This document shows, in pieces, positions 1-63,999 of a stretch of 64,000 nucleotides of DNA (its first letter is position 1; every line of letters begins with the position of its first letter). The translations under genes and the position numbers were made by a program. This DNA is from an uncultured virus (IMG/VR IMGVR_UViG_3300042505_000808). Its lineage: Duplodnaviria; Heunggongvirae; Uroviricota; Caudoviricetes. The notes beneath the pieces were generated by a model that made no database searches, was not told the origin of the DNA, and saw only the letters and a list, made by a program, of their open reading frames with translations. The DNA is taken from the IMG/VR virus record IMGVR_UViG_3300042505_000808. One strand, written 5' to 3'.

Positions 1-660
1 GTATCCTTGAGCTCCGGCATATCCTTGTGGACCAGCATATCCTTGAGCTCCGGCATATCCTTGTGGTCCCACATATCCTTGTGGTCCCACATATCCTTGT
101 GGACCAGCATATCCTTGAGCTCCGGCATATCCTTGTGGACCAGCATATCCTTGAGCTCCGGCATATCCTTGTGGACCAGCATATCCTTGTGGACCAGCAT
201 ATCCTTGAGCTCCGGCATATCCTTGTGGACCAGCATATCCTTGTGGACCAGCATATCCTTGTGGACCAGCATATCCTTGAGCTCCGGCATATCCTTGTGG
301 ACCAGCATATCCTTGAGCTCCGGCATATCCTTGAGCTCCGGCATATCCTTGTGGACCAGCATATCCTTGTGGACCAGCATATCCTTGTGGACCAGCATAT
401 CCTTGTGGACCAGCATATCCTTGTGAGCCCATGTAACCTTGAGCTCCATCGTAACCTTGTGGACCAGCATATCCTTGTGAGCCCATATAACCTTGCGGAC
501 CCGAATATCCTTGTGGACCAGCATATCCTTGTGAGCCCATATAACCTTGCGGACCAGCATATCCTTGAGCTCCATCGTAACCTTGAGCTCCATCGTAACC
601 TTGAGCTCCATCGTAACCTTGAGCTCCATCGTAACCTTGAGCTCCATCGTAACCTTGAGC
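1..660 (-). repeat. 18-bp coding tandem repeats ([24 protein letters not shown])
   Basis: Units such as catatccttgtggaccag and catatccttgagctccgg are directly visible; they encode Gly-X-Y on the minus strand. Confidence 0.95.
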
Positions 661-9889: not shown

Positions 9890-10843
9890 TTATTCGCAAG
9901 TTAAACAGCGGCGATCTCCAAGACGCGCCCCAAGCACAGTTGTGTCGAAGGTTGCAGTTTCTGCCGCTAACTGGTTAACAAAAAGCTCTAAAGCGTTTCG
10001 CTGCGTTGCAAAGCGTTCTAAATCCCTAGTAATTGCCTCTAACTCTTCACAACCACAGCAAGGAGCACAGCAAGAATCTGCGACTTTAAGTCCATTTGTC
10101 ACCGGAGCAAAACTGATACAGTCATCCCCCACAAAGTTAAAGTTACCCGCTGTGGTTGGACCTATTCCGTTAATAGTTTTAATGCAAGGAATGGCGACAG
10201 CTTCACCTGCGCACACGCATTTTTCAATAGTGCCTTCCCCGTCTAAAGCACTTATAATGATTTTAGTTTCTGACCCATTTATTGCGGTAGAAATTTGAAT
10301 GTTAGTTCCGGCAACTAACTCAATATCTCCATATAGATTCTGGCTAGTGTCACCTGTACCTGAGGATATCCGCATTGCAGATATTCCTTTAATCATAGGG
10401 CGAATGGCTTGGGGCTCAATGTGTGTACCTTCAATAGTGAAGGAGAATAGACCGCTAGGCTGTTCTTGTATAGTATCTACGCGCCCAATAATTACTTTAC
10501 CGCTTATGTCGGTATAAGCACCTATACCATTGATCGCAAAAACTTTATTTCGAATAGGATTAGTTGTAGAGATTAACCCAGTGGCCACATCTATAAGGCT
10601 GTCCCCTGTGTCATACGAAATAATTAGTTGTATACCCGAAGAAAATAAACCAAGCTGGCGTATAAAGAATCTTCCAGTTTCCATGTCCATAGCAGGGGAC
10701 ACAGGTAAATCTAATCCTACAAGAAAATCGTCTGGGATTTCAAACGAAGCTGTAACATCTTGTTTAGTTGCTTCCGCCGTCAGCGGGTAACTACGCTGCG
10801 AATTATGATTTAGAAAATCTAAATTCCACTGTGATAATGGCAT
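9890..10843 (-). CDS. Cys-rich tail-associated protein, paralog family member
   Basis: 317 aa; NHNSQRSYPL...IPDDFLV; CIKTINGIGPTTAGNF; CCAPCCGC followed by a helical heptad-like end. Confidence 0.6.
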   Translation of the reverse strand: MPLSQWNLDFLNHNSQRSYPLTAEATKQDVTASFEIPDDFLVGLDLPVSPAMDMETGRFFIRQLGLFSSGIQLIISYDTGDSLIDVATGLISTTNPIRNKVFAINGIGAYTDISGKVIIGRVDTIQEQPSGLFSFTIEGTHIEPQAIRPMIKGISAMRISSGTGDTSQNLYGDIELVAGTNIQISTAINGSETKIIISALDGEGTIEKCVCAGEAVAIPCIKTINGIGPTTAGNFNFVGDDCISFAPVTNGLKVADSCCAPCCGCEELEAITRDLERFATQRNALELFVNQLAAETATFDTTVLGARLGDRRCLTCE

Positions 10844-17510: not shown

Positions 17511-18413
17511 TTAAACACAAGTGACAACTAATTTCTGCCCTTTGTGCAACTCTACGGCTAATGTATTTTTTGTTTCTTTCTTAACCCCTACTGCATTTTC
17601 ATTTTTCCCATATAGTTTTTGAATGCGCTTAATATCATCATTATCTTGGGGACCGCTTACAAAAGGGTTATAGTAGGGGGCCATCAGTGCCCCAGCATTC
17701 TTTGAGTGGTCTAACCCAAGAAGATGCCCAAATTCATGGCAAGCAACATTTAACATCATAACTCCACGATCCGTAGGCTGAGAAATCCAAGTTTCATCCA
17801 GATCGAACCGCATTGTTAGTTGTTGGTCATTCCCTTTTGGCATATAAGCCCAAGCTAGCGTACCACCTCTCCCATCAAAATTATGCTGTATTCCCTTACC
17901 TGTAGCAATCGCAATGTCTGCTTTCTTTGCGTCTTTGATTCGGGTAATGTTTAAACCGCACACATCGTCCCAAGCTTTAAAGGCTGCAGCTAGTATTTTA
18001 TCTTGCGTTGGCTTGCCTAGCCCTGTGACATACTGTTGAACAGCAAAAGTAAGCCCATTCTTATTCCATCGATTACGCTGCTTCTCCGCAACATCTTGAG
18101 CTTCCATAAACTGGATATGTTGTTTATTTTTAGGATCAAGCTTATCAGGGCAGCCACAACGAGGAGTTTCCATGGCTCGTAAAGTTTTAGGCCCAATAAC
18201 CCCATCTACTTTCAAATTAAACATGCGTTGAAATGTTTTGACTGCTGCTTCGAGCTTGGCATAGTCCATGTTCTGAAGCAAATCAATGGCGACATAACCA
18301 AAGAAAGTTAGGTAGTCCATCGCAAAGTGCATTGCTTGTGGAGAGTTTTTATCACTTCCATTTTTCTTAAATAAACGGATAGCTTCTACCCGCCCTTTTT
18401 GCTCTAGTGACAT
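17511..18413 (-). CDS. Matrixin (M10/MMP-like) zinc metalloprotease with PG-binding-like propeptide
   Basis: AVKTFQRMFNLKVDGVIGPKT (PG-binding-like), PRCGCPD cysteine switch, HEFGHLLGLDH zinc motif, ALMAP Met-turn. Confidence 0.9.
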   Translation of the reverse strand: MSLEQKGRVEAIRLFKKNGSDKNSPQAMHFAMDYLTFFGYVAIDLLQNMDYAKLEAAVKTFQRMFNLKVDGVIGPKTLRAMETPRCGCPDKLDPKNKQHIQFMEAQDVAEKQRNRWNKNGLTFAVQQYVTGLGKPTQDKILAAAFKAWDDVCGLNITRIKDAKKADIAIATGKGIQHNFDGRGGTLAWAYMPKGNDQQLTMRFDLDETWISQPTDRGVMMLNVACHEFGHLLGLDHSKNAGALMAPYYNPFVSGPQDNDDIKRIQKLYGKNENAVGVKKETKNTLAVELHKGQKLVVTCV

Positions 18414-21346: not shown

Positions 21347-22084
21347 TTACCTCGGAATAAAAGGAGACAATTTTTGTTCTTGATCCAGCAATTGCTGTAT
21401 CTTAGTTTTACGCTGGGTAATAGCACCTGGGCTGCGATTAAGCTTGGCAGCAATTTCTTGATTTGATAGTTTTTTATTTCCACGCATTCCCAATGTCAGT
21501 TCCATGATGCGCTGGTCTAAAGGACTTAGCCCTTGATAAACTACTTCACCCCATAGGTCTGCACTAGCTTGCTGGTTAGGAACTACACTTGGAGCACCTC
21601 CCGCTAATGGGTCAATTGCATCTAATCTTCCTGTGTTAACTCCGGGCTGATAGCTACGAATCTTTGCAAGACGGGGCATAGCTATCCCCAGCTTGTCTGA
21701 TAGTTCTGCGTCAGTAGGATCTCGCCCAAGCTCGTCTGACAGCTCTTGTGTAGATCCGTGTAACCTTTGATTCTCTAGCAAGATGCGTTCAGGTACGCTT
21801 ATTACTTGATGCTGCTGCTGGTTAATCCTACGAAGCCCTTGCATCTGGGTTAACAAGTGCGACTGAAGGCGGGACCGCTTTGGATCGTACTTACGCACTG
21901 CGTCCAATGCTAACAGCTTGGCACGGCTAGACGTTAATGGACTATCTGCACCATACATCTTGACCCCCTTTTGTACTATTGGATCAAGTGCTTTTAGTAA
22001 GGCAGCGTTGCCTTCTGGTGTTTGATTCTGCTGCCAGCTTTGAAATGCTGGTTTATATTCGTCTTCTAAATAATCGTCCATCAT
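21347..22084 (-). CDS. RNA polymerase sigma factor, sigma70 family (group 3, FliA/SigF-like layout)
   Basis: Region 2 DAVRKYDPKR; ISVPE; region 3 ELGRDPTDAELSDKLG; region 4 LSPLDQRIMEL...LSNQEIAAKLNRSPGAITQR HTH; SD AAGGAG. Confidence 0.85.
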   Translation of the reverse strand: MMDDYLEDEYKPAFQSWQQNQTPEGNAALLKALDPIVQKGVKMYGADSPLTSSRAKLLALDAVRKYDPKRSRLQSHLLTQMQGLRRINQQQHQVISVPERILLENQRLHGSTQELSDELGRDPTDAELSDKLGIAMPRLAKIRSYQPGVNTGRLDAIDPLAGGAPSVVPNQQASADLWGEVVYQGLSPLDQRIMELTLGMRGNKKLSNQEIAAKLNRSPGAITQRKTKIQQLLDQEQKLSPFIPR

Positions 22085-25348: not shown

Positions 25349-28300
25349 TTAGCGTGTTGGGGCTAAAATGGTTTCACTCATATTGCCCTCGCCATTAACT
25401 GTGCCTTTGATTGTCAGTGTACCAGTTAACTTCATGGTCTTATCTGCTTCTTTTTTAACATCTGCAGCAATATCTTGCGTACTAACTCGGCCTAAGGATT
25501 CTTTTAGATCTTTTTCCCCATACTTTCCTGGAGCCTTATCTTTCAGCCCCATAAACTCAGTCTTTTTCATCATACTGTCTAATGCGTCTTCAGACATACC
25601 ATGCGTCTTTGCTAAAGCCTTCTTTTGCTCTGGAGTTTTAGCCTTAGCGTACTCGTCTGTGAGCATATCCAACTTATCAATAGCAGTAGCATCTTTACCC
25701 CCAATTGTGAGTTTGCCTACATCTTTAAGTACATTCGCAACCATCTGTCTATTTCTATCGCCAGCAACACCCCCACTTTTTCCAAGATCTGCACTAAACT
25801 TTTGCCTATCTTCTTTAGTCGTCTTACCGAAAGCATCGGCTAGCGTGTTCATGGAATCACTGCCCAAGTCTTTATCCTTAGCTTCCTTGGCAATCTTTTG
25901 AGCATCTTTTTCTAAACCAGTCATAGTTCCAAGGTTCTTAACAATGTCCGACTCGGACATACCACCAGCTCTCAGTTTTGTGGCTTCTGCTGTGTATTCC
26001 GCTTTTCGTTTTTCAAGCTGCTCTACCACACCTTGGTTGTTTAGGCGTTGTTCATACTTTTTAACATCTTCAGGTTTGTTGATGTCGAGTCCAGCTTCCT
26101 TCATCCGTGCTTCCTTAGAAGCAGTTTTCTTCTCAACAACCCCAGACAACCTTGCTACTTCTTGCTGTGCATTTGGGGAGTTTGGATTTCTAGCTAACAT
26201 TTCTTTTGCGTTTGCTAGCTGGGTTTTTGATCCAGATAGTGACGATTCATCTTGTCTTGCTGCTTGTAACTGTGCTTTAGCTGTCCCCTTTGTTGGATCA
26301 TCTTTAAACATTTTAAGATTAGGATCGATCTCGCCACCTCTAACCGCTTTTCGATAGTCTTCTTCTTTCATGCCCAAAGCTGCTGCATCTTTTGAGACAT
26401 CTCTTGCGTCTTCTTTGGCCATCTTATCTAACGAGGTAATTTGATCTTTGTTTAACCCTGTTAAACCTTGCATGCCTTCTGCCGATTTGATTAGCTCTTT
26501 CTGTTCTGGGGTCATACCATCTGTATTAACTGGCTTACCCGCTGCGATTTGGTTGGTGATTGTTTTCAGATCTAGCCCAGCAGTAGCCTTCTTTAAATCC
26601 GTACCTTTTAAAGTGGCAGCCGAGCTTAAAGCTTGCAGCCCTTTTTCTTGTTCACTTGATGCGTCTTTACCTACCATTGTTTTTGCCAATGTCTTAGTTG
26701 CTTCTGTCGGCTTAAGCATATCTGCGTAGGTCTTATTGGCTGCTCCGGACATACCTTCTACGGAATCTTTCATGTTTCCAACTAAGTCTTTAGATTTAAG
26801 CGAAAGATAAGCAGCATAATCTTTTTCAGTAAGGTTACTTCCGCCAAACATGCCTGTGCCAACATCTTTACCAGCGGCTTTCAACCGCTCCGTTACTGTG
26901 GTCTTCTCTGCATCAGACAATTTATTGAAATCGGCTTTTACTTGGTCTTGCCCCTTCTTATCAAGAGCCACACCACCGCTGCTCACCATCTTGCCGACAT
27001 CACCACCAAAATACTTATTTGCCATCGACTGCAGTTGTTCTTCAGACTCTTGACTTTGCTTAGCAGCTATTATTGCGCGTGCCCCACCACGGCTAACGGC
27101 TTTAGAGTCAGATAAGAATTCTCGTCTCATTTCTGAAAGACTGCCTATTCGAGATTCTGTATCTTGGGCCGCTCGCTTGCCCTCGGCAGAATCTGCGTAA
27201 GTGTTAGCTGCGTCCCGCTTCTTTGTGACATCTGCTTCGGTTTTTCCATAAAACTGTTCAATTTGTTTGTTGTCGATATACTTGCTAACAATTGCTGCTC
27301 TGTCTTCAGATTTGGCTGCAACTAAGTCTTTCTTCAATTGAGCTTTATCCGCCCCATCTAGACCCTTATATTTGGCAATATCTGCACCCTTACCGCTTAA
27401 TTTTTCATCTGCTCCAAGCACACCGAGGCTGCGTAATTGATTTTCTGCAAGTAATTGATCTTCGGCTTTTTGAGTTAATTGTTTTTCACTGCTGTTGTAA
27501 GCTTTGAGAGCAGCTGGATCTAGGGCCTTTAACTCTTCTTTAGTTAATTTCTTTTGCCCCGCTGCTTCTGTTCGCATCAACTCTGTGCGTTCATCTACCG
27601 CCTTGGCAGTCGGCTTCAGCTCCACCCCACCTCGCCTACCTTGAATAATAGCATCTTGGGTTTTCTCATCCTTTAACCCCCCAACTGTTGCGTCTGCTCC
27701 AAGCTCTTCCCTCATCTCTTTAGCCCGAACATCTACGGAGACTACATCACCCCGTAACTTTTCCTTTACTCGGGCACGCGCTGTTTCTTCATTAGCCCCG
27801 CTTTTAATCGCTTTGTCATAAACTGCTTTAGCTTCTGGGGACAGATTTTTTATGGCACCAGCTGACAGCTTATCTGCTTCTTCTAATTGCTTAGTTCGAT
27901 CCTTTTCCGCTAGTACTCGCATATCGCTGTCTGTAAGTTTTGTTGTTCCAGCATCTTTTCTTTCTTGCTTGGTTACTTCAGCAGTAGACCCAGCTGCCCG
28001 CACTTGTTCCATTCGGTTAAAGTGATCTAATTCTCGAGCAGCAGTTTTACCTTTAGCAATATCTGCTTGATTGAACTCCCCTTCTTTATCTGTGAGACCT
28101 AGACTATCTGACATCTCTCGGCTGGCTGTTACATGTTGCTTCAGCAATGCTGTTTCTTCTTTGATTTCCTTTTGAATTTTCTTTTTCTCTTCAGGGCTAG
28201 CACCTTGCAGTTTAGCGGTTAAACTTTCAATTTTAGACTGGCTTGCTCGTACACTTTCCAATGGTTTATTTAACTTAGCTGCGGCCTCATCCATATCTCC

Positions 28301-30544
28301 AGCAAACATATCTCCCATTAAAGTAGCTAAGTTAGCATCTTCTCCTTTATCCCCTTGCTTCTGTATTCCAGTAGACAATCGTTGTAAAATGCTACCTTTA
28401 GGTCCGAGCCCAGACATTGCTTCATTTAAACCAGCTCTTGCACCCACTTCAGCTTGTTTCTCTTCTCGGCTTTCTCGCACAGCCTTACCATGCACTTGTG
28501 CGTAAGAAGTAGCATCCATTCCCAGCTTATTGCGTAGTACTGTCTCCCTCTGCCCAAAAGAAGTAGCAGCCATATTCTGAGCTTCTGCCTCACTTAAGAC
28601 TACTCCACGGTTAGCCGCCTCTGCTTGTATTGCATCGGCAATCGCTCGGTTTCTTTGTTTTGGATCTTGCAACTGTGCCATAGTCAATTCGTCAGTAGCA
28701 TCCGTGGCCGCTTTACCAAGTGCAGCTGCAATTTCTGTGCGTTGCTTAGGATCTGCCACTTGTTCTTGAAGTGCTTTGCTTGACGATAGACGATTGCCGG
28801 TAGTTCTAGCAATTTGCTTTGCAATTTCAGCAGGCTGCTGTCTCATCGCAGCCTGTTGCCGCTCTTCATTAGTAGACAAAGCACGTAGGTTAGAAGTTCG
28901 ATCCCCTAACATCATGTTAAAGTCCGAGGTGTTCATTCCATTCACAGCACCTCGCCCGACCATACTTCTAAATTCACCCTCTTTTGTTGGGGTGTTCTTT
29001 GTATGTGATTTACCTGAATCATCTACAAATGTGTAATTCGGTGCCCCAGAATCAGCGGCAGCTAATGCAGCTTTCATCTCTCGCCCAGCTTGATTCTCGG
29101 AAAAACCACCAGCTTCTTCGATGCGGGTTAAGGCTCCTAAAGAGTTAGCCATTTCAGAACCCATCCCACGAGAGAATAGGCCCATGGATGCCTGCTCTGC
29201 TTGTTCTCGGTTTAGTGCTCCAAATCCAGTAGCTCCACCATGCTCTGCAAAAGCCATACCTGTAGTAGTTCCAACCTTAAGCGATGTAGGATTAAAATGA
29301 ACTCCATGACCCCCCATCATCTGAGTGTTCTGCGAGTTGGCATATTGATTCATTGCAGTCAATTGATCGATACTTTTACCCGAAAGTTGAGACATGGCCT
29401 GCATATCTCGTACCATCGAAGTAAGCTGCCCTGGTGTAAATTTCTGCATCTGCCCCGAGGTCATGGCTTTAAGTGCATTTATTAATTTTGGAACAGGTGC
29501 GTTTGGATCTCCATTCTCACCGAACACCTCACGAATAGCCGAAAGCGATCCAACATAATTTTGTAGTTGGTCTGATATCTGCCTAGCGTCGTCCTTGCCC
29601 ATTTTAGCTGAGACACCTGAATCTTTTCTCAGTTTAGATAATTGTTCATTGGACAAGCTAGCAAGGTTGGTATCGTCTCCGATTTCAACTCCAACTTTTT
29701 TACCTATCGCTTTTAAATCCATCCCTTGTTCTCTACCTTCTTGTAAAGATTGAAGGGTGCGATCCCGCAAACTTCCGGTAGGACCAACCAAGCCTTCTGC
29801 GGATAATTGTCTATATGCTTGCCCCATATCTCCAGCCCGCATCCCATTCATTTGGGCCATGTTGTCCCTAGAAAACATGTTTTCAAAAACATTATTAACT
29901 AAGTTTTTATTGGAGTCAGTGCTGTATCCCATTTTACCTGTGATGGGGTCCGCTCGGTAGCGGTTTGCTTCCATCATCTGCCCAGCCATTGCTTGTACGC
30001 TGCCTTTTTCCCCAGAAATTGCATCCATGAAATCAGGAGCGACCATTGATAAAGTAGGCCCAAGCGAAGAAATAGTATCCGCCATATTGCGTGCGGCTTC
30101 TCGTTGTCTACGATCAAAAGGAACGCCAGCTAAAGCAGCGGCTCCTCGGAAAGAACGATAAATACCCTCGGAGTCTTGCCCCGCCACCCCTGCACCTACT
30201 TCATTTTTCATCCGTAAGTGTTCACGAGTGCGGTGTGCTTGCATGTAGGAACCAGCGTTACCCATAGGCATTAAGCCTTGCTGCTGCATCTGCTGAGATA
30301 AGTAAGCATTACCAGCACCCGCAGCTAGCATTCCACCTATGCCAAATTGTTGTAAGTTTAGAGGAGCTAAAGGAGATGTGTCGGGTAATGCATTACCTTG
30401 GATCGGAGAGGAATATCCTCGTGCCAACTGAGCTAAATACCCAGCACCCCCAGTGGGATGGGGACTAAATGCTCCACCTGGGAGCATCCCTAGTCCTTGT
30501 GTTGCATCTTGCATCCACTCTAATTGGCTGGGATCCATGGTCAT
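25349..30544 (-). CDS. Tail tape measure protein
   Basis: 1731 aa; Ala/Lys/Gln/Glu-rich helical; follows the chaperone pair; no Cys. Confidence 0.8.
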   Translation of the reverse strand: MTMDPSQLEWMQDATQGLGMLPGGAFSPHPTGGAGYLAQLARGYSSPIQGNALPDTSPLAPLNLQQFGIGGMLAAGAGNAYLSQQMQQQGLMPMGNAGSYMQAHRTREHLRMKNEVGAGVAGQDSEGIYRSFRGAAALAGVPFDRRQREAARNMADTISSLGPTLSMVAPDFMDAISGEKGSVQAMAGQMMEANRYRADPITGKMGYSTDSNKNLVNNVFENMFSRDNMAQMNGMRAGDMGQAYRQLSAEGLVGPTGSLRDRTLQSLQEGREQGMDLKAIGKKVGVEIGDDTNLASLSNEQLSKLRKDSGVSAKMGKDDARQISDQLQNYVGSLSAIREVFGENGDPNAPVPKLINALKAMTSGQMQKFTPGQLTSMVRDMQAMSQLSGKSIDQLTAMNQYANSQNTQMMGGHGVHFNPTSLKVGTTTGMAFAEHGGATGFGALNREQAEQASMGLFSRGMGSEMANSLGALTRIEEAGGFSENQAGREMKAALAAADSGAPNYTFVDDSGKSHTKNTPTKEGEFRSMVGRGAVNGMNTSDFNMMLGDRTSNLRALSTNEERQQAAMRQQPAEIAKQIARTTGNRLSSSKALQEQVADPKQRTEIAAALGKAATDATDELTMAQLQDPKQRNRAIADAIQAEAANRGVVLSEAEAQNMAATSFGQRETVLRNKLGMDATSYAQVHGKAVRESREEKQAEVGARAGLNEAMSGLGPKGSILQRLSTGIQKQGDKGEDANLATLMGDMFAGDMDEAAAKLNKPLESVRASQSKIESLTAKLQGASPEEKKKIQKEIKEETALLKQHVTASREMSDSLGLTDKEGEFNQADIAKGKTAARELDHFNRMEQVRAAGSTAEVTKQERKDAGTTKLTDSDMRVLAEKDRTKQLEEADKLSAGAIKNLSPEAKAVYDKAIKSGANEETARARVKEKLRGDVVSVDVRAKEMREELGADATVGGLKDEKTQDAIIQGRRGGVELKPTAKAVDERTELMRTEAAGQKKLTKEELKALDPAALKAYNSSEKQLTQKAEDQLLAENQLRSLGVLGADEKLSGKGADIAKYKGLDGADKAQLKKDLVAAKSEDRAAIVSKYIDNKQIEQFYGKTEADVTKKRDAANTYADSAEGKRAAQDTESRIGSLSEMRREFLSDSKAVSRGGARAIIAAKQSQESEEQLQSMANKYFGGDVGKMVSSGGVALDKKGQDQVKADFNKLSDAEKTTVTERLKAAGKDVGTGMFGGSNLTEKDYAAYLSLKSKDLVGNMKDSVEGMSGAANKTYADMLKPTEATKTLAKTMVGKDASSEQEKGLQALSSAATLKGTDLKKATAGLDLKTITNQIAAGKPVNTDGMTPEQKELIKSAEGMQGLTGLNKDQITSLDKMAKEDARDVSKDAAALGMKEEDYRKAVRGGEIDPNLKMFKDDPTKGTAKAQLQAARQDESSLSGSKTQLANAKEMLARNPNSPNAQQEVARLSGVVEKKTASKEARMKEAGLDINKPEDVKKYEQRLNNQGVVEQLEKRKAEYTAEATKLRAGGMSESDIVKNLGTMTGLEKDAQKIAKEAKDKDLGSDSMNTLADAFGKTTKEDRQKFSADLGKSGGVAGDRNRQMVANVLKDVGKLTIGGKDATAIDKLDMLTDEYAKAKTPEQKKALAKTHGMSEDALDSMMKKTEFMGLKDKAPGKYGEKDLKESLGRVSTQDIAADVKKEADKTMKLTGTLTIKGTVNGEGNMSETILAPTR

Positions 30545-54987: not shown

Positions 54988-57900
54988 TCATTTAGAACTT
55001 TCTGCCCATCCTCGATACTCCGCTAGATCTTCATTGTTAGTTCTCAATTGGGATTCTAGTTTCGCCCTTTGTTCTGGCGGAAGAGAAGTATCTCGAAGTT
55101 GTGCTTCAACTGCCACAATGTTTTCTTTAAGCCCATTAACTCGATTACGCATGTCCGTGCTAAACAAGCCCTTACCTGAAGAACCACCCTCTCGCTCGTA
55201 AGTACCCATCATCTGCTTACGCTGTGCCTGTCTATTTAATAACTGCTCCTGCCTTGCTTGCCCCCCTGCGTCTAGCTCCCCCTTAGCTTTTAACTCTGCT
55301 AGTTCTGTGTCCGCAGCTGTAACCGAATTTTGCATGGCATCACGGAATTTGTGTCCGCCACTACCAAACCAATTTTGTTGGCCTAGTCTCCAGTTAGCTG
55401 TTTCATCCGCTGTATTTCCTTGTCTAGTTTTAGCGTCTTGTATTTGTGCTTTTAAATCTGCAGTACCTTCTAAATTCTGCGGTTTAGTCAAAGCTAATTG
55501 TGCTTCTAGACCTTTTTGCTTTTCTACTTCCATTGCATTAACTTGCGTTTTGTCTGCCACCGAGGCACGGGAACGAGCATCAGTTCCAGTTACTTTGTCA
55601 CGAATAGCTTCACCGGCCATCCCAGCCTGCTCCCCAAGCATCCCCGCTGTCTGAGTTGCACCCCCAGCTATTAGCTGCGCATTAGCCACTGGGTTAAGAG
55701 CTTGTGCAGGGGCTTGCCATGCTGTATGCAGCCCATCTTTAAACGAAAGAATGTCTCTCCAGTTTTGTGCTGCATCATTGGTTGTATTATCCCAACCTTT
55801 ATCTACTATGTCTGAACCAACGCTATAAGCTTCCATACCTGCACCAAGGAATGGCAGAGCTTTTCCTACTCCTTTAGTAAGTGCTGAAAATCCTTTACCT
55901 ACATAACCTGCAGGTGCTTTAGGTAATGGGGGTGGACCTTTAGGCAATGGCGGGGGGCTACCAGGCACAGGTGGTGGAGTTGTAGGAAAGGGGGGCGGGC
56001 TTCCGGGTATAGGAGGCGGAGTGGTAGGAAATGCAGGTGGTTTAGGTGCCATAATTGTATTTTTTATACCATTGTAGCCAATTGGAGCAGCATACCCAAA
56101 TGCTGTACCTGTATCTGGACCCGAGCGGGCTGCTGGTTTTTCCTCTGTAGGCGAGTCTACTGTAGGAGCAGATGCTGTAGGGGCACTAGGCTGGGAACCG
56201 CCACCAAACATATTAAGCATGCTATTCCACATCCCACCTTGGTTTGCAGCTGGGGTAGGACTGCTGCTAGGTGCATTAGATTGCGGGCTTTGGTTTAAAT
56301 TTTGTTGTCCTTGTCCGCTGTTGTTTTGGGCACCACCCCCAAACATATTAAGCATATTACCCCACAACCCATTATTATTACTTGTAGCTAATCCTTGTGA
56401 GGGTCTCGAATTAAATAGCTGTTGAAAATTACCACCACCAGCCATCCCACCTAACATCATAAGCCCCATTAAAGGATTTTGATTTAACATCTGCCCAGCT
56501 TGCCCTGCAAAATTAGAATTATTTTGCATCAAATAATTAAAGTGATTAAATTGATCCGAATTTGAGGTTGGGGTAGGTGTAGATGCGGGCGGAGGGGCTA
56601 AAGCAGAAGTGCCCTGATCGCCCTTTGCGTCAGTATCTTTGTATGTGTCATACAGTGATGGGGCGGGGGCAGGAGTAGGTGCAGGCGCAGGAGTAGGTGC
56701 AGGGGTAGGTGGCAGAGCTGGCATGATATTTGGGCTAAGGTCAGCTGCTGGGGTATAAGGATGAGGTTCAGTATTATTACGAGGGGCAACCCCGCCTTCC
56801 ATATGTTCTGGGGAATTTGACCCATTCCTTGGGGCTGGTCCGCCCATATATTCTGTAGCAGGGGTATTGGGTATCGGTTTAGAGACGGCAGGAGGCTTAG
56901 AAACGGAAGGTGGTTTAGAAACATCTGGAACAGAGTCCATCGCAAGCTTAGTTTGGCCAGGGGTAAAACGACCGCCAAAAAAAGGAGCGTTGCTAGGTGC
57001 TATAGGCTTTAATGCAGGAGGAGTAGGAGTTGCAGGTAGCTCATAGCTAGGTTTAGGTTTTATTACCGCATGGTCTTTACCTTCTCCAAAATCAAGACCC
57101 ATTGCTAAACTAGGAACAAAGCTTGTACCTCGTTCTTCGCTGATAGCCCCATGAGTCACAGAATCTAAGAAACTTTTCTTTAAACCAGACCCATACATTT
57201 GAGTCATCCAGTCAGGATCATGCTGCATTTGATACAAACCACGAACCATGTGGGGCTCAAATGGCGGAGGGTTCTTGTGTACTGGAATTTCATTGATTTC
57301 AAAATCTTGAAAATTCTTAAGCATAGAAGGTCGAATTTTAGTACCAATAGTGTAATGCAGTATAGGTCGTTCAAGATATTGACCTAGTGCTCGCTTAGGA
57401 GTTAATCGCTGGTGGTCTTCTCGTGGTTTGTAAGTGTGCTCAAGCGTAGAGTAAGGAACAATATCGTCAGGTACATGGTCATCTGTTTCTTCTGTCAGCC
57501 TTACATGGTTAATAAGACCTCGAGCTAATACCTCTATGTTTCGTCTGTGCCCGAACATTCCGCTGTCACCCATTGCCTTACGAAACTCATTAACAAAATA
57601 GCGTCTTCCTTCGCCTACCCCTTTGTGCTCTGTAATAGTAGCAGGGTTAGGAATTCCTGAGCTAATTACATCCCCAGCCTCTACCTCGTCTCCTTTTTTT
57701 ACTTTAAGATCAAACCCAGCCCCTACATAATGTTGTTTATCTCCAATGGTTACATAGCTACCACCCGCAGGAGCTTCCTCAATACGCTGTACTACTCCAT
57801 CTTTTAGTGCATGCGCTGCCCCGCCTTGCATCTTCTTTGGAACTTGCACTAATTGGTTTAAATACTGGAAACCGCTGACAGCTTTTTCTTGACCTGCCAC

Positions 57901-58920
57901 TCCACCCGAATGTTTTGCAGATAGCTGACCTTGGCTAATCGGTTCACTTAAAGCATGTGCAGCCTGTAACCCAACTTGCTCGCCAAGCCCTGGAAGCTTT
58001 CCAGTTTCCCGAATACCTACATCCCTAGAATAAACACCACCATCGGGAGATCCACCTACGAGGGCAGATCGTACTAAGATTTTAGATGTGCCAAGCCGTT
58101 TTAAATGATTCAGTATTTTCGGAGTAAGGGGAGTGTTTCGAGCATAAGGGCCAACAGCCCGAGCTAGCAGTGCTCCTTCGTTATCTGCGTCATCAGTGTC
58201 TACTACCAATCCTCGAATAGGTGCATCTTCTGCCTCTTCGGCATCTTCTCCGGTTACCACTAATCTATGGCTAGTTTGATTAAGTTGTTTGTTAAAAAAT
58301 CCGGCATCTTGTGTGGCAAACTTAGTTGCCATAATACCTTTACGTGCCCCATAGGTTCCGGCCCAATACTCGGCAGGGGACAACCCTTCGCTGTAGCTAC
58401 GCAGTACAGGGATTGGAATCACATCATCCCGCTGATCCGAATACAGCATGTCTGAACCTAACAAACTAGTTAAATTCATAGACTTACCGCGCGTACCTGA
58501 CATTACCTGCATCCCAAGCGGATTCTTATTTAGCAATGCCTCTGCAAGTACTTGTTTTTGTTGTTCTGGACTTTCTTTACCAACGGCACGAATAATCTGC
58601 TCATTTCGCTGCTGATCTGTCAAAGATTCGTCAGATAGAATGTTGGTAAGTGTTGCTCTAACTTTCTGGCGAGAAGCTAATGCCGCTTTGCTTACTTGCA
58701 AATGGCGAAGACCAAAAGACATGCCACCCTGCTCTTGAGCCATGCTTTGGCCAAGACCACTTAGCTTAAAAGAAATGTCTTTATAACGCTCTGGGTGTTG
58801 TTGTGCCACTTGCTGTAATAAAGATTGCAGCCCTTTTTTATCTAGCACACGATGAGAGTCTCTCAACTCTTCCGGAAGGACATCATTAATTAACAGTTGT
58901 CCAACGGTCGTATTCAACAT
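54988..58920 (-). CDS. rpoC: RNA polymerase beta' subunit, C-terminal half, fused to a 650-aa low-complexity extension
   Basis: TTVGQLL; SGTRG; bridge helix EGLSPAEYWAGTYGARKG; trigger loop GEQVGLQAAHALSEPISQGQLSAKHSGG; NIEVLAR. Confidence 0.9.
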   Translation of the reverse strand: MLNTTVGQLLINDVLPEELRDSHRVLDKKGLQSLLQQVAQQHPERYKDISFKLSGLGQSMAQEQGGMSFGLRHLQVSKAALASRQKVRATLTNILSDESLTDQQRNEQIIRAVGKESPEQQKQVLAEALLNKNPLGMQVMSGTRGKSMNLTSLLGSDMLYSDQRDDVIPIPVLRSYSEGLSPAEYWAGTYGARKGIMATKFATQDAGFFNKQLNQTSHRLVVTGEDAEEAEDAPIRGLVVDTDDADNEGALLARAVGPYARNTPLTPKILNHLKRLGTSKILVRSALVGGSPDGGVYSRDVGIRETGKLPGLGEQVGLQAAHALSEPISQGQLSAKHSGGVAGQEKAVSGFQYLNQLVQVPKKMQGGAAHALKDGVVQRIEEAPAGGSYVTIGDKQHYVGAGFDLKVKKGDEVEAGDVISSGIPNPATITEHKGVGEGRRYFVNEFRKAMGDSGMFGHRRNIEVLARGLINHVRLTEETDDHVPDDIVPYSTLEHTYKPREDHQRLTPKRALGQYLERPILHYTIGTKIRPSMLKNFQDFEINEIPVHKNPPPFEPHMVRGLYQMQHDPDWMTQMYGSGLKKSFLDSVTHGAISEERGTSFVPSLAMGLDFGEGKDHAVIKPKPSYELPATPTPPALKPIAPSNAPFFGGRFTPGQTKLAMDSVPDVSKPPSVSKPPAVSKPIPNTPATEYMGGPAPRNGSNSPEHMEGGVAPRNNTEPHPYTPAADLSPNIMPALPPTPAPTPAPAPTPAPAPSLYDTYKDTDAKGDQGTSALAPPPASTPTPTSNSDQFNHFNYLMQNNSNFAGQAGQMLNQNPLMGLMMLGGMAGGGNFQQLFNSRPSQGLATSNNNGLWGNMLNMFGGGAQNNSGQGQQNLNQSPQSNAPSSSPTPAANQGGMWNSMLNMFGGGSQPSAPTASAPTVDSPTEEKPAARSGPDTGTAFGYAAPIGYNGIKNTIMAPKPPAFPTTPPPIPGSPPPFPTTPPPVPGSPPPLPKGPPPLPKAPAGYVGKGFSALTKGVGKALPFLGAGMEAYSVGSDIVDKGWDNTTNDAAQNWRDILSFKDGLHTAWQAPAQALNPVANAQLIAGGATQTAGMLGEQAGMAGEAIRDKVTGTDARSRASVADKTQVNAMEVEKQKGLEAQLALTKPQNLEGTADLKAQIQDAKTRQGNTADETANWRLGQQNWFGSGGHKFRDAMQNSVTAADTELAELKAKGELDAGGQARQEQLLNRQAQRKQMMGTYEREGGSSGKGLFSTDMRNRVNGLKENIVAVEAQLRDTSLPPEQRAKLESQLRTNNEDLAEYRGWAESSK

Positions 58921-58961
58921 GGATAGTTCTCAGCGTGTGCAAATTATTTAAAATCTGGATT

Positions 58962-59531
58962 TTAGTCGTCACTATCGTCACCACCAAAGGCGGCTTCGAT
59001 ATCTTTAAGAGTAATTTCTTCACTCTTGCCACGCTTTGCTTTCTTACGAGATGGCTTAGGTTCATCTTGTATAATAGCAGCCGCCTCTGGCATACTCTCA
59101 ACAACTTTGACTACTTCTTCTTTAATAGCTTCAGGAGCTAGTATAGAAAAAGATATGGAGTCTGCCTGATCACGGGTTAATTCTCCCCGTCCAACCGACA
59201 TGTCTACAACGATTTGCAGCTGTGTAATTATATATTCAGTGGCCTTCACTGTGATAAGCGTGGCTCCGTTTTCAAATTCAGCTTGTATGGCTGCGAGCCC
59301 ATAGCAATTATCAAGTATTTCTAACTCTACTTCTTTTTTTGGAGGAAGTTGAAGTTTAGCAATAAGAGGGGCATCTTCTAATATAGGTAGTGACATCTCG
59401 GCATAATACTTATTATTAGAAGAGTTTAAGTTAGAAGATTGTTGATAAGTAGGAGCAGGGATAGCTGTAAGGCTAACCTCTGGTTTTCGGTCTCGATAGT
59501 AGCAGTCAGAAGATCGTAAAGAATCGTCCAT
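58962..59531 (-). CDS. Hypothetical protein
   Basis: 189 aa between the RNAP genes. Confidence 0.65.
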   Translation of the reverse strand: MDDSLRSSDCYYRDRKPEVSLTAIPAPTYQQSSNLNSSNNKYYAEMSLPILEDAPLIAKLQLPPKKEVELEILDNCYGLAAIQAEFENGATLITVKATEYIITQLQIVVDMSVGRGELTRDQADSISFSILAPEAIKEEVVKVVESMPEAAAIIQDEPKPSRKKAKRGKSEEITLKDIEAAFGGDDSDD

Positions 59532-59532
59532 A

Positions 59533-59757
59533 TTACACCTGTATCTTAGTAGAAATAACGGTTTCGTTAATACCTAGTTTACGCAAATTATCATTGAAAC
59601 TGGCATCTTCACAATGAGACACCATAACGCTGGAAGAACCACCAAAAAGTGCAGCTACGCTAACTGGAGTACCATCTAGCATACGCACTACAACCTGAGA
59701 AGCAGGTATCCTAAGTGGAGGTTTACCAATACTTTCAAGTACCTCCACGATAAACAT
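59533..59757 (-). CDS. Hypothetical protein
   Basis: 74 aa; tightly packed with an SD-like AAGGGA. Confidence 0.6.
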   Translation of the reverse strand: MFIVEVLESIGKPPLRIPASQVVVRMLDGTPVSVAALFGGSSSVMVSHCEDASFNDNLRKLGINETVISTKIQV

Positions 59758-59769
59758 ATAATAAATCCC

Positions 59770-60504
59770 TTACTTGTTATTATTACGCATTAAAAGTGCA
59801 GTAGCCAACGCTGCTACACTGCCACTTTTAACAGAAGTATGTTGAGGGTAATAATCCGCAGGCAAGCTGAAAGCTGTACCACTTTCCCACGCCTCCGCTG
59901 ACTTCATAGGAGCAATAGGTTGAATCTGCCCAAGACCACCACCCGACTTACCATCGGGAGTAGCTGCCGCTAATCCTGGCCCACCTTGTGCAATCTGGTT
60001 TAAGTCTTCAGGTGTTACCACCATATCAGACACAGGTACATGGATGCCAAGTGCATCAATAATCTTAGCAAGCATTTTCTTAATCTGTACGATTTCGACA
60101 TTGATGTCAATTTTAGGTTTAAGACCGGGGCCTGCGCCTTGTGGTTGCCCGCCACCATTAGCTGACATTGCTTGTTGCACTGCCTGTTGAACCATCGGCA
60201 TTATTGCTGCCATGGGGTCCATAGGGGGAGGAGGTGGAGCACCGCCACCCATAGAAGGATCCATAGGAGGAGGTGGGGCACCACCGCCCATAGAAGGATC
60301 CATAGGAGGAGCACCGCCCATTGAAGGGTCAGGAGGTGGAGCACCACCGCCCATAGAAGGATCCATAGGAGGAGCACCGCCAGAAGGCATAGGAGCCCCC
60401 ATAGCAGGATCGCCTGCCGCAACAAATGCATATTTAGATAGGTGTCGTTTTCCTACATGTTGTCGGGCCATCTTTAACAATTCCAAATTAACTGCCATAA
60501 ACAT
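59770..60504 (-). CDS. Pro/Gly/Met-rich protein (GGAPPPMDPSM repeats)
   Basis: 244 aa; SD AAGGAG; KYA and KSA motifs flank the repeat core. Confidence 0.7.
   Translation of the reverse strand: MFMAVNLELLKMARQHVGKRHLSKYAFVAAGDPAMGAPMPSGGAPPMDPSMGGGAPPPDPSMGGAPPMDPSMGGGAPPPPMDPSMGGGAPPPPPMDPMAAIMPMVQQAVQQAMSANGGGQPQGAGPGLKPKIDINVEIVQIKKMLAKIIDALGIHVPVSDMVVTPEDLNQIAQGGPGLAAATPDGKSGGGLGQIQPIAPMKSAEAWESGTAFSLPADYYPQHTSVKSGSVAALATALLMRNNNK
60212..60385 (-). repeat. About five imperfect 30-40-bp coding repeats (GGAPP..DPSM)
   Basis: Repeated atagaaggatccataggaggag / gcaccgccc units. Confidence 0.85.
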
Positions 60505-60570
60505 ACTCCTTGTGTGATCTCATCTTATGATTCTAAGTTCTAATCAAAATCTAGGATAGAGATATATTGC

Positions 60571-63500
60571 CTAACCATTTAAAATTCGTACGGGATCGTT
60601 GATCGAAATATCTCCACGTGCATGCGCTCGTCTTACATCCTGTATATTCTGGAAAATCCTTAATGGTCGATCAGATTTACGAGAAGGATCTGTACCCATA
60701 AATAAACCACCAATGTACTCATTAGCAGGGGCATGCATTACAGACTTCATATCACCCACACTAAAAAGATTACGACTTGGCAATAAGCGGTCAAATGCTT
60801 CTTGCCTAGCTTTTTCCGTACTTGGCACATGATAGTTCATGGTGTCGCCATCAAAGTCAGCACCAAATCCCTTCACGATCAAAGGACTTACTTGTAGGGT
60901 ATTCCCTTTAGTCAATCTTGGCCTCATCGCCATAATCCCAAACTTATGCAAAACAGGAGCACGACTAATATATACAGGACGATGCTCCATCTCTTCAAGC
61001 AAGAATTTGCGTGCTACCGGAGTCTTATCTTCTAATTGAGTACGAGCCTGCAGCATCGACATGCCTTGTCGCACCAATCTTCTAGTAACAAATTTCTCAT
61101 AGACCTTAAATGCTTTATCTTCGGGCAGCCCTACCGAGTCCATGTCCAATTCCGGATTTGGAGTAATTACCGCTCGACCTACATTGTCTACCGTAGACGA
61201 AATCAGTTTGCGTTGTACAACCCCGAACTTAGGGCTTGCACCAAACACATTTTTTAAAGCCCCACGAACATTCTTCTCTTGGCTTTTTGCACTAATAGGA
61301 TCACCTAACCCAGTCACCGCTTTAAATGCTTGATAGGTAGAAAGACGCTCCGATCCCGAAGCTTCTTCCCCTACTTCTTGCTGCATTTTGCTAAAATTCT
61401 GATTAGCCTCAAACAGTTCTTTATAAAGGTGATTAGCGTCGTTAACCAATGGCATGCCATTGCTCATCAAGCTAACTGGACGAAACATTGGAGGAAGAAC
61501 TGGCACTTTGGTCAGCATGTAGTCCGCAGGCTTCAGCCCTAGTTTATGTGCAGATTTAAAATAGCTAAGCTTACGAATTGCGGCATCTCGTTGCGCCCCT
61601 CGCCCTGCGGCTATCATAGCTCGAGCTTTAGGGATTTCTGCTTCTGGATTAAGATTCTCTAATGCCTTTTGTAAAGCTTTCGTACCGGTGCCATATTTCT
61701 CTAAAAATTCTGTACCTGCCACAATGCCTTCAAACTTTTTCTGTGTTAGCCCAAGCATATGACGAATAGGTTCTTCCATTACTGGGTTAGGTAAAGGTTC
61801 GTGCAAACGCATAAACGACCAACGAGTGCCCCCGTGTCCACCAGTTTTAGCCTTGTCAAATAAGCCACCATTAATCTCTTTAAGCTGATTTCCCCATTCT
61901 ACTCCGTCTGCGCTGCTAAGCTCACGATCCCCAGCTAAGTTGTCAATGTCCTTGTCCGTCAATGCCATGATTTGAGTCTGCGTTCCTTGCTTAACCACAT
62001 TAACTCCAGCAGATTGCAGCTGGGCTACAAACTTCTGATAAGCAAAAGGAACTTTAGTAACCTTAGGGTTATACCCAGACATGTACTGCATCCAATAATC
62101 ATCATTCTTCTGCCTACGAATTGTAAAAATGTCCTGCAGTGTGTCCGTAGCTCCGTGAGAAAGTAATGCGTTGGCATCCATTAGCCCAATACGCTTAGAA
62201 CCTTCAACACCACCTTTAGCCGGTGCATCTTCCATCGTGTAAGCTCCACCACTTCTACCTTGTCCTTTAGACTCAGAGGTGTGATGCAGTTTCATGAAGA
62301 AACGATTACCCGTTGCCACATTTTTAATTTTTTGATCTTTAGATGGGTCTATAATGTCTTCTAAGTCCGACAAACCTTCCTTAGCTAATTCTTGCATAAC
62401 CCATTGAGTCATATCTTTTTTAGTGTCAAAATCATCCACCTTAATAGGCATGCCACGCTTAGCTGCTATTTTACCTAGAAACAATTCAGACATTTGAGCT
62501 GGGTTGGTTCGGCTAATAATCCCAAGAGGATTAAGAAGCACTTCAAAAGGTTGTTTATTTGAATCATGGGGCATTTCGCTATCTGGGATGATGTCAGCAA
62601 TAACACCTTTATCCCCATAACGACCCGACAGCTTATCTCCAACCTGCGTTGGCGATTCTGCCTTAACTACAACGACTGGACCTTTCTTACCCATTACCAC
62701 ATCAGTAACAACACCACTATCGTGATGCTGCCAAAGTACTGCTGCGTCGTTGAATCCAGATTGACCCTTCTTATGCACTTTGTTGTATACATTTTCCTTT
62801 TGTGTGATCCCCAATACCAAAGGATCTCCAAAGTTAACTACTGTACCAGGCTTGACCACTCCTTGATCGTCTATGTTCGCTAATATGTCTTTTTTAAAGG
62901 TAGCTGGAAATGCTTGAATAAATTGTCTTTTACCGACTTGTGTTTTGTCATCCACTTCCAACTCATGCTGGTACATATGGGAAGAAGCTGTCTTCTTTGC
63001 AAAGCTTTCTGAGATAACAACCGCATCTTCAAAGTTTTTACCCTGCCATGGGATATAGGCAGTGCGAGCATTTCGGCCTAAAGCCATTGTTCCAGTACTG
63101 TCCGTGAAGTTAGAGCTAGCTAATAACTGATTTGGTCTAAATGTGTCACCGGGTTTAACTGCGGCAGTTTGATGAAAAAAGGTTTTACGATTGAAAGGAA
63201 AATTATGATAAAGTTCGTGCGTTTCTTCTGTTCCGTCTGCATTACGCACTTTAATCTCTTCATCCGTCACCGAGGTAACTGTACCTCCTTGTGTTGCCCT
63301 TAAAGCTCCCATCCCAGATGAGTATAGCTCTTCATAACTTTGTTTACCGCCTGTGTGCGGAACTGCAGACTGTACCAAAGGAGCTTCAGGAGAAGCTAAA
63401 GGTAATGCTTGTGTGGTCATACGAGATGCCATCACTAATCGCTGACCTTTTACCTGACTCTTCATGGGGATGACATTAGAAAGAGGATTAAATGCTTCTT

Positions 63501-63999
63501 CCATGTCAGGAAGCTCTAAATCAATGCTTGATTTAGGTACATGTAACATCTTACCGCCACGCATCGCCACTACACGGGCATCTTCACCATCTTGGCTTCC
63601 GGGAAAACCAACGGTTAAGTCTGCTACATCTTGAGGAGTTTTAAAAGTCATTTCCCCGCTACGCAGATCCTTAAACTGAGCATAGAGCTTACCATCGCTT
63701 CCTTTACGAGATCCCCTAGCTAGATATGTGTCCACCCCTACACGACCCGACTCGGGAGTACGCACAGGATCCACATAACCCAACATGCTTGACTGTACAT
63801 TTCTGGATTCCATGGGAATTGCATCCATAGAACCAATACCACCCTCACCCACTCGAGTAACAGACATTGTCTTTTCATAAATGTCTGTAGGATTAATTTC
63901 TTCAATCGCTTGCCCTAGCCCGCTACCGAGCAAAGCACTTTTTAACTGTTTTTCTAATGCTGAAGACGGCATCGAATCCAAATTACCTTTGCCTGACAT
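60571..63999 (-). CDS. rpoBC: RNA polymerase beta (C-terminal half)-beta' (N-terminal half) fusion, probably 5'-truncated by the window edge
   Basis: Beta motifs RTPESG, RMTTQALPL, NFEDAVVIS, GDKLSGRYGDKG, LNPLGIISR, MKLHH; then beta' motifs VPVLPPMFRP, GRAVI, RAPVLHK and catalytic ADFDGD (DFDGD at 60844-60858). Confidence 0.92.
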   Translation of the reverse strand: MSGKGNLDSMPSSALEKQLKSALLGSGLGQAIEEINPTDIYEKTMSVTRVGEGGIGSMDAIPMESRNVQSSMLGYVDPVRTPESGRVGVDTYLARGSRKGSDGKLYAQFKDLRSGEMTFKTPQDVADLTVGFPGSQDGEDARVVAMRGGKMLHVPKSSIDLELPDMEEAFNPLSNVIPMKSQVKGQRLVMASRMTTQALPLASPEAPLVQSAVPHTGGKQSYEELYSSGMGALRATQGGTVTSVTDEEIKVRNADGTEETHELYHNFPFNRKTFFHQTAAVKPGDTFRPNQLLASSNFTDSTGTMALGRNARTAYIPWQGKNFEDAVVISESFAKKTASSHMYQHELEVDDKTQVGKRQFIQAFPATFKKDILANIDDQGVVKPGTVVNFGDPLVLGITQKENVYNKVHKKGQSGFNDAAVLWQHHDSGVVTDVVMGKKGPVVVVKAESPTQVGDKLSGRYGDKGVIADIIPDSEMPHDSNKQPFEVLLNPLGIISRTNPAQMSELFLGKIAAKRGMPIKVDDFDTKKDMTQWVMQELAKEGLSDLEDIIDPSKDQKIKNVATGNRFFMKLHHTSESKGQGRSGGAYTMEDAPAKGGVEGSKRIGLMDANALLSHGATDTLQDIFTIRRQKNDDYWMQYMSGYNPKVTKVPFAYQKFVAQLQSAGVNVVKQGTQTQIMALTDKDIDNLAGDRELSSADGVEWGNQLKEINGGLFDKAKTGGHGGTRWSFMRLHEPLPNPVMEEPIRHMLGLTQKKFEGIVAGTEFLEKYGTGTKALQKALENLNPEAEIPKARAMIAAGRGAQRDAAIRKLSYFKSAHKLGLKPADYMLTKVPVLPPMFRPVSLMSNGMPLVNDANHLYKELFEANQNFSKMQQEVGEEASGSERLSTYQAFKAVTGLGDPISAKSQEKNVRGALKNVFGASPKFGVVQRKLISSTVDNVGRAVITPNPELDMDSVGLPEDKAFKVYEKFVTRRLVRQGMSMLQARTQLEDKTPVARKFLLEEMEHRPVYISRAPVLHKFGIMAMRPRLTKGNTLQVSPLIVKGFGADFDGDTMNYHVPSTEKARQEAFDRLLPSRNLFSVGDMKSVMHAPANEYIGGLFMGTDPSRKSDRPLRIFQNIQDVRRAHARGDISINDPVRILNG

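Follow-up and report, generated by a model that had tools for sequence, protein, structure and literature searches.

RNA polymerases (RNAPs) carried in the phage particle have been described in several forms. The virion RNAP of coliphage N4 (gp50) and its counterparts in other Schitoviridae (e.g. DEV gp71) are packaged, ejected and devoid of cysteine, as are their partner ejection proteins; in the ejected proteins of N4-like phages cysteine is suppressed to 0.00075%, compared with 0.865% (PMC11445570, PMC2784036). N4 gp50 consists of one T7-like subunit of ~3500 amino acids (aa) and has no sigma factor; its fold is unrelated to the two-barrel beta/beta' fold. The phiKZ- and AR9-like virion RNAPs, as outlined in parts of a review, are derived from beta and beta', lack alpha and omega, have beta' in two chains and are packaged and injected; phiKZ has four or five very divergent chains, no sigma-70-family factor and a second, non-virion set. 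Thermus phage P23-45 has a virion RNAP that is related to cellular RNAPs and forms a minimal single-chain two-barrel enzyme within the tape measure protein (PMC10770324). In addition, the virion association of RNAP proteins of Salmonella phage Arash (OQ632216) has been published (PMC10585845). The stretch analysed here (the window) is 64,000 nucleotides of DNA from an uncultured virus (IMG/VR record IMGVR_UViG_3300042505_000808). At 54988-63999 on the minus strand it encodes a bacterial-type beta/beta' RNAP whose two polypeptides contain no cysteine and in which both zinc sites of beta' are lost. As in the N4 group, packaging and ejection are likely to go with this composition.

The window corresponds, in reverse complement, to bases 113732-177731 of a single 178,753-bp virus record with a CheckV completeness of 83%. 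Almost all genes of the genome are on one strand, and the RNAP genes stand at the head of the structural block on that same strand. The 54988-63999 span contains four minus-strand open reading frames (ORFs), of 1310 aa, 189 aa and 244 aa, together with the last 1142 codons of a further gene (60571-63999) that continues beyond the window end. The original prediction, made from the sequence alone, had taken 1142 aa as the length of one RNAP polypeptide; this is the window-cut part of a 1488-aa protein (genome 112695-117161). Pfam and PDB sequence searches show that this protein is an entire beta subunit fused directly to the front half of beta'. It has the conserved domains Rpb2_6 (E-value: 3.7e-50) and Rpb1_2 (E-value: 1.2e-23) and matches both beta chains (2.8e-69, including residues 35-242 opposite beta 25-231) and beta'/gamma chains (1e-44) of the PDB. 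For the 1142 codons in the window, the values are 2e-50 (Rpb2_6), 7e-24 (Rpb1_2) and 1e-69 (PDB beta chains). RpoB and RpoC motifs are easily recognised, as had been predicted, in contrast to the single-subunit N4 and the highly divergent phiKZ-type enzymes, and both fold and sequence are those of beta/beta' rather than the single-subunit T7-like fold of the N4 gp50 family. The catalytic ADFDGD loop of beta', which holds the Mg-binding Asp triad (residues 1393-1398; 60844-60861, minus strand), is intact, and D1394, D1396 and D1398 are invariant in an alignment of 22 relatives.

The back half of beta' (beta'C) is encoded separately by the 1310-aa ORF (54988-58920, minus strand). Residues ~1-625 of this protein (57046-58920) form the beta' core and include the bridge helix (58282-58368) and trigger loop (57892-57960), both located by alignment to solved beta' chains. 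The core aligns to beta' residues ~658-1169 of PDB 8dy7_D (3e-35), and an AlphaFold 2 model of residues 1-640, made with 30 relatives (mean predicted local distance difference test [pLDDT] score 79.2), matches solved beta' chains (E-value: 7e-26). The break in beta' is close to the cyanobacterial gamma/beta' break: residue 1480 of the fusion lies opposite gamma 552 of 624, and beta'C residue 23 lies opposite RpoC2 residue 5. A split at a nearby place is thus shared with the cyanobacterial and plastid rpoC1/rpoC2 genes, and rpoB-rpoC fusions occur in Helicobacter and Wolbachia. Unlike the RNAP encoded here, such split or fused cellular enzymes keep both zinc sites, the alpha dimer and omega. 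The alpha and omega families (PF01000, PF01193 and PF01192) were unmatched in the 83%-complete record, with controls matched in 14 of 14 genomes, and only one Rpb1_2 locus was found in the same record. A search for the T7-like RNAP family PF00940 also gave no match; its control was matched in 0 of 14 genomes, making this search uninformative. Provisionally, the two genes encode the only detectable RNAP of this phage, a bacterial-type two-barrel core. In contrast to phiKZ, there is one RNAP set here, which Pfam recognises easily; its chains are fused instead of being divided further, and a sigma factor accompanies it.

Residues 626-1310 of the beta'C protein (54988-57045) constitute a 685-aa extension with a Pro-rich, low-complexity middle and an Ala/Gln/Glu-rich helical end. 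It has homologs only in the two nearest relatives, IMG/VR lineages L014 and L064 (95% and 90% identity). The beta'C of most relatives ends at ~625 aa, Arash has no such extension, and five other lineages have long but unrelated ones. No Pfam family matched the extension above threshold, and its structure-atlas scores (≤0.84) were at noise level. By analogy with N4 gp50 or the tape-measure fusion of P23-45, one may speculate that it serves for tethering or ejection. In its general description, the joining of an RNAP to a long non-polymerase part may parallel P23-45 (PMC10770324); unlike P23-45, this phage has a full bacterial-type core that is separate from the putative tape measure protein.

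Per-ORF counts bear out the predicted absence of cysteine: it is zero in the complete 1488-aa fusion (including the 1142-aa part in the window), the 1310-aa beta'C protein, a 245-aa sigma factor and a 1731-aa ORF. Cysteine makes up 0.94% of the 47 long ORFs of the window (193 of 20,616 aa) and 1.33% of a simple genome-wide ORF set (741 of 55,710 aa). The probability of ~2e-11 originally calculated for 2452 aa at 1% cysteine is arithmetically correct; with the five purged proteins set aside, cysteine stands at 1.47%, and at that frequency the probability of finding none in the 2798 aa of the two complete chains (1488 + 1310) is 1.0e-18. A general absence of cysteine from the non-structural proteins of this phage, which would have spoken against packaging, is excluded because the DNA polymerase (19 in 1163 aa), the ribonucleotide reductase (RNR; 15 in 759 aa) and the terminase (14 in 651 aa) all contain it. 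The tail proteins are cysteine-rich as predicted, with 21 cysteines in 558 aa (8210-9886) and 11 in 317 aa (9890-10843) in two distal tail ORFs (3.5-3.8%). Thirteen of the 93 ORFs of at least 200 aa are cysteine-free, including those for the capsid protein (315 aa), a 975-aa protein and a 506-aa Snf2-type helicase.

To our knowledge, the two zinc sites of beta' are near-universal structural features of cellular RNAPs. Both are lost here, in agreement with the original prediction. At the N-terminal zinc ribbon, beta homology ends at ~1040-1058 and beta' homology is first seen from residue ~1108 of the full-length chain, which aligns with E. coli beta' ~173; ~70 cysteine-less residues replace the bacterial ~170. 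The junction segment GGLFDKAKTGGHGGTRW (full-length residues 1057-1073; 61819-61869, minus strand) occupies the place of the ribbon, and the GGLFD...W that flanks the deletion presumably corresponds to a bacterial motif, by resemblance of motifs and not by alignment. Former zinc site 2 lies at 58015-58254 (minus strand), with TGEDAEE at 58234-58254 and RSALVGGSPDGGVYSRDVG at 58015-58071. In an alignment to solved beta' chains whose columns were checked, A, G, Y and D stand at the four bacterial cysteine positions (phage ..GEDAEE.. against ..EDCGTE.., and phage ..VGGSPDGGVYSRDVG.. against ..TCES..GTCAFCYG..). This stretch is modelled by AlphaFold 2 at pLDDT 80-94.

The two losses differ in distribution. 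The collapsed ribbon segment is nearly invariant across 22 relatives and is also present in Arash and Vibrio phage D69, which indicates that the ribbon was lost long ago. The site 2 cysteines are absent from 45 of 51 aligned rows, most of which show a conserved D/E/A-G-Y/F-D replacement pattern, and are kept in the other six (Arash, D69 and IMG/VR lineages L062, L066, L067 and L070). Arash Gp216 and D69_0264 contain exactly four cysteines each, all of them at site 2, where the present phage has A, G, Y and D. In a quick maximum-likelihood tree, midpoint-rooted and with the four site columns left in the alignment, the loss of site 2 is a single change (Shimodaira-Hasegawa-like approximate likelihood ratio test: 97) and the lineages that keep zinc are basal.

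The Vibrio phages D69, D148 and D181 and Arash share this architecture (30-32% identity by tblastn, 30% for Arash): in all of them beta continues into the front half of beta', the back half is separate, the ribbon is collapsed and a Snf2-type helicase is present. Full-length alignment with Arash Gp206/Gp216 and with D69 recovers the fused-and-split layout and the collapsed ribbon. IMG/VR contains at least 603 relatives, with contigs that reach 235 kb; the 9-kb span itself had no megablast match among phage records. The cysteine purge is family-wide and extends over relatives down to about 40% identity. Among the best 150 representatives of the fusion gene listed by phmmer (41-65% identity, 987-3350 aa), the RNAP-homologous parts contain 222 cysteines in 221,986 aa (0.10%), some of which may be junction residues because the insert boundaries were taken from BLAST; 19 of the 26 representatives shorter than 1600 aa contain none at all. 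Cysteine is likewise absent from 42 of 58 beta'C homologs in 78 loci, and five of the 16 exceptions carry inserts. The background in 1232 neighbouring non-RNAP ORFs of at least 100 aa is 1.08%, and a conserved 843-aa downstream neighbour has 0.91% cysteine and is cysteine-free in 0 of 47 homologs.

The internal inserts of the same 150 representatives contain 1734 cysteines in 81,057 aa (2.14%). Intein-splicing and LAGLIDADG domains were recognised in three of five representatives tested; a fourth had a weak, sub-threshold LAGLIDADG match and the insert-free fifth had neither. Since the RNAP parts have 0.10% cysteine and the inteins in the same genes 2.14%, selection acts on the mature protein and not on the gene. 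Inserts of at least 100 aa occur in 125 of the 150 representatives (one to five per protein, in proteins of up to 3350 aa), and the fusion gene family is a notable intein hot spot; the fusion gene in this window has no insert. For 59 putative intein C-termini, identified among 224 inserts by a crude method, position +1 holds Thr in 27 cases, Ser in 14, Tyr in 11 and another residue in 7, and never Cys. Those with Tyr probably represent endonuclease motifs inside the insert.

Two further cysteine-free proteins are likely partners of the RNAP. The 245-aa sigma-70-family factor (21347-22084, minus strand) is encoded in the tail/baseplate module. It matches PHROG 351 (1.3e-8) and Pfam Sigma70_r3 (25.5 bits against a cut-off of 25.3). 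The original prediction, which placed its subject at 54988-63999, was right that this factor lacks cysteine, whereas its gene lies outside that span. Of 120 sigma homologs 119 are cysteine-free, with a single cysteine in 29,406 aa. In co-folding with beta'N (residues 1100-1488) the sigma factor scored 0.33 against 0.00 for the best of three controls, with runs agreeing in at least 40% of contacts and a partner pLDDT of at least 64. Of 157 solved complexes, 116 also pass the mark that it passed, as do 2 of 215 mismatched pairs; passes with a score of 0.60 or below account for only 18 of the 157 solved complexes and for both passing mismatches. This gives weak support to the interaction, and the pass may reflect memorised structures because sigma-beta' complexes have already been solved. 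A candidate second sigma factor with a weak Sigma70_r2 match (E-value: 8e-4) and an internal stop was rejected, as the best PHROG of that ORF is a DNA polymerase exonuclease subunit.

The second partner is the Snf2-family helicase (506 aa; genome 91069-92589, outside the window). Its gene is 20 kb from the RNAP genes, and in Arash it adjoins the beta'C gene. Helicase homologs of up to 530 aa are cysteine-free in 88 of 93 cases (8 cysteines in 45,797 aa), and longer ones in 18 of 27. The Met-rich 1731-aa ORF (25349-30544, minus strand), predicted to be a cysteine-free tape measure protein, is indeed of that length and without cysteine; it has no match in Pfam or PHROGs, and its designation as a putative tape measure is based on size and position only. 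Another cysteine-free ORF (975 aa; P ~5e-7) lies outside the window at genome 80296-83223. It contains only a weak acylphosphatase-like stretch and was given no assignment, with structure-atlas scores of ≤0.80 and template modelling scores of ≤0.29. It may be another packaged protein.

The link to the virion comes from Arash. BLAST pairs the two RNAP chains, sigma factor and helicase of the present phage with exactly Gp206, Gp216, Gp10 and Gp217, and the sigma gene is in the tail module in both phages. Mass spectrometry of Arash virions detected 128 unique peptides of Gp206 (the highest number for any protein), 40 of Gp216, 38 of the helicase Gp217 and 24 of the sigma factor Gp10, compared with 32 for the portal, 30 for the capsid, 11 for RNR alpha and 2 for primase (PMC10585845). 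The Arash authors propose a role in early transcription, and a second Arash sigma factor, Gp196, is not in the virion table (PMC10585845). Arash shows near-total depletion of cysteine in these proteins (Gp206 has one in 1525 aa, and Gp217 and Gp10 have none), and Gp196 contains three. Section 16 and other passages of the Arash paper make no mention of cysteine or zinc (PMC10585845).

From these data we infer that the RNAP of the present phage is likewise packaged. At a probability of roughly 65%, it would be a virion enzyme that is packed into the particle, delivered with the DNA and able to start phage transcription without the host RNAP, with the cysteine purge as an adaptation to this route. 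In such a model, the RNAP would be made late together with the structural proteins and packed into the particle, to work with the phage sigma-70-family factor and probably with the Snf2-type ATPase. Each chain would wait in an oxidising environment, pass through the tail and the envelope (probably unfolded), enter the host with the DNA and refold alone, whereupon the enzyme would begin transcription independently of the host RNAP. With all cysteines and both zinc sites removed, a chain would have neither thiols that could be oxidised nor zinc that had to be taken up again. As the alpha dimer is missing, the beta-beta' fusion could hold the two large subunits together in its stead.

Several observations weigh against this interpretation. 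In the Arash preparation 116 of ~252 proteins passed the filter, including RNR, ligase and primase, and the authors allow for carry-over of abundant proteins (PMC10585845). The portal gene, which is beside the RNAP genes in Arash, is 41 kb away from them here. The absence of cysteine is not specific to ejected proteins, because the capsid protein and other members of the 13 cysteine-free ORFs lack it as well. In phiKZ, if gp80, gp149, gp178 and gp180 are taken to be the virion enzyme (an assumption drawn in part from the notes of the sequence records, where a subunit is called 'structural head protein'), the virion RNAP has 16 cysteines in 2614 aa (0.61%) against 33 in 2850 aa (1.16%) in the non-virion RNAP, which is only a mild depletion. 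The original prediction held that homologs with zinc-site cysteines would count against packaging. Such homologs do exist in the distant Arash, D69 and four IMG/VR lineages; the other 45 of the 51 rows lack these cysteines, and Arash still carries its RNAP in its particles, so that an RNAP with a zinc site can be associated with the virion. Finally, because the record is only 83% complete, the statements that this is the only RNAP and that there is one sigma factor are provisional.

The first alternative is a non-virion RNAP that, like T7 RNAP and the phiKZ non-virion RNAP, is produced once infection has begun, its genes being transcribed by the host. Cysteine and zinc would then have been lost through tolerance of oxidative or thiol-reactive stress within the infected cell, escape from a host factor that targets a zinc site, or scarcity of zinc in the habitat. 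The virion data come from Arash and not from this phage, the Arash particle list is a broad one, several proteins besides the RNAP (the capsid protein among them) are free of cysteine, and the injected phiKZ enzyme tolerates cysteine, which means that ejection does not demand a purge. However, zinc scarcity would neither remove cysteines that do not bind zinc nor purge the sigma factor and helicase, which have no zinc site, and the replication and nucleotide enzymes of the same genome have normal cysteine contents. The Arash orthologs were sampled like portal and capsid, far above the metabolic enzymes, and the cysteine-bearing second sigma factor was not listed; in addition, the sigma gene of the present phage is located among tail genes. 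This alternative is considered rather unlikely.

The second alternative accepts packaging and denies a role as early transcriptase. The proteins would be head cargo or a component of an internal body, or would be used only after new synthesis, and cysteine would have been lost through long exposure to oxidising conditions and not through passage of the envelope. The cysteine-free capsid protein and putative tape measure fit this view, as do the cysteine-poor inner-body proteins of phiKZ (7 in 3016 aa). The catalytic loop, bridge helix and trigger loop are nevertheless intact and conserved. A full initiation set (core, sigma factor and Snf2 ATPase) that is co-purged and co-detected is hard to explain for inert cargo, and tail and baseplate proteins that are equally exposed are rich in cysteine. 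An inert or late role is thus judged improbable. A chance or compositional effect of the genome or of low-complexity sequence is refuted: although the 1310-aa chain includes ~685 aa of low-complexity or helical extension in which cysteine is rare anyway, the probability is ~1e-18 at the genome's own cysteine frequency, the 625-aa core and the 1488-aa fusion are each cysteine-free alone, and the pattern recurs in relatives to about 40% identity in spite of the 2.14% cysteine of the inteins in the same ORFs.

A packaged and injected enzyme therefore remains the preferred explanation. The original interpretation is partly supported, by several kinds of indirect evidence: it is favoured by the Arash virion peptides, by a purge in the relatives that spares their inteins and by the published cysteine-free, ejected N4 enzyme from which it had started, and tempered by the site 2 cysteines of distant homologs and the 16 cysteines of the phiKZ virion RNAP. 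Because Arash-like lineages keep site 2 and the phiKZ enzyme has these cysteines, freedom from cysteine is a strong signature of packaging rather than a requirement or proof. In this family, cysteine loss accompanies packaging without being indispensable to it or sufficient to prove it.

A more far-reaching proposal can be offered tentatively, and we regard it as possible rather than probable. The core, sigma factor and Snf2 ATPase may form a complete sigma-dependent initiation machine without cysteine, zinc sites, alpha or omega, which is stored in the particle, threaded chain by chain through tail and envelope and reassembled unaided in the host. The fusion would replace the alpha scaffold and the conserved Asp/Gly/Tyr/Asp cluster would replace zinc, and a widespread aquatic clade (the IMG/VR relatives counted above) would be free of the host RNAP from the first minute of infection. 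In the literature covered, which did not extend to subscription journals, no description was found of a cysteine-free or zinc-free multisubunit phage RNAP, or of the cysteine content, zinc features or layout of this family. In the parts of a 2026 review that concern them, phage multisubunit RNAPs are said to lack sigma homologs.

This large natural family indicates that a recognisably bacterial RNAP can do without thiols, alpha, omega and both zinc sites. Should the particle indeed deliver the enzyme, the rule of cysteine suppression, so far known for the unrelated single-chain RNAPs of the N4 type, would apply to multisubunit enzymes together with their sigma factor as well. It could then serve as a sequence-only marker for ejected proteins in uncultured phages, and structural and biochemical studies would gain a bacterial-type RNAP that is small, zinc-free and self-assembling. 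The cultured relatives (Arash and Vibrio phages D69, D148 and D181) make the question testable.

Two small ORFs separate the RNAP genes. The 189-aa ORF (58962-59531, minus strand) has two cysteines. The 244-aa ORF (59770-60504, minus strand) encodes a cysteine-free protein that consists largely of PPMDPSMGG-type repeats, and its homologs in 11 related loci have 0.10% cysteine. It was considered as a possible sigma factor and rejected on account of its Pro/Met/Gly repeats and the lack of a match to any sigma family. A 16-base inverted-repeat motif, TAAAATCCAGATTTTA (genome strand), lies at 58949-58964 of the window, 43 nt upstream of the beta'C start. The genome contains three exact copies and 21 copies with at most three mismatches, against 1.5 expected; others are at genome 59714, 65006, 142833 and elsewhere. 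Nine of the 21 copies are intergenic, and eight of these nine are 18-44 nt upstream of a start codon. The motif is a candidate promoter or operator sequence, and only the two closest relatives keep the copy that precedes beta'C. A promoter search by exact 8-mers enriched between genes produced no strong word and led only to this motif.

Other genes of the phage have unusual features. Outside the window are genes for a 431-aa tubulin/FtsZ-family protein (genome 74778-76073) and for the 1163-aa DNA polymerase (genome 51578-55069), in which a uracil-DNA-glycosylase-superfamily domain is joined to a family A polymerase. At window 1-4575 (minus strand), an ORF of more than 1524 aa that continues off the window contains seven collagen triple-helix repeat stretches (Pfam E-value: 1.2e-86) and 25 cysteines, and is probably a long tail fibre. 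Next to a baseplate J-like gene, window 17511-18413 (minus strand) encodes a 300-aa protein in which a peptidoglycan-binding domain occurs together with a zinc metalloprotease domain of the matrixin type (Peptidase_M10; E-value: 3.3e-36). This protein is a candidate, of an unusual kind, for a cell-wall enzyme associated with the virion.

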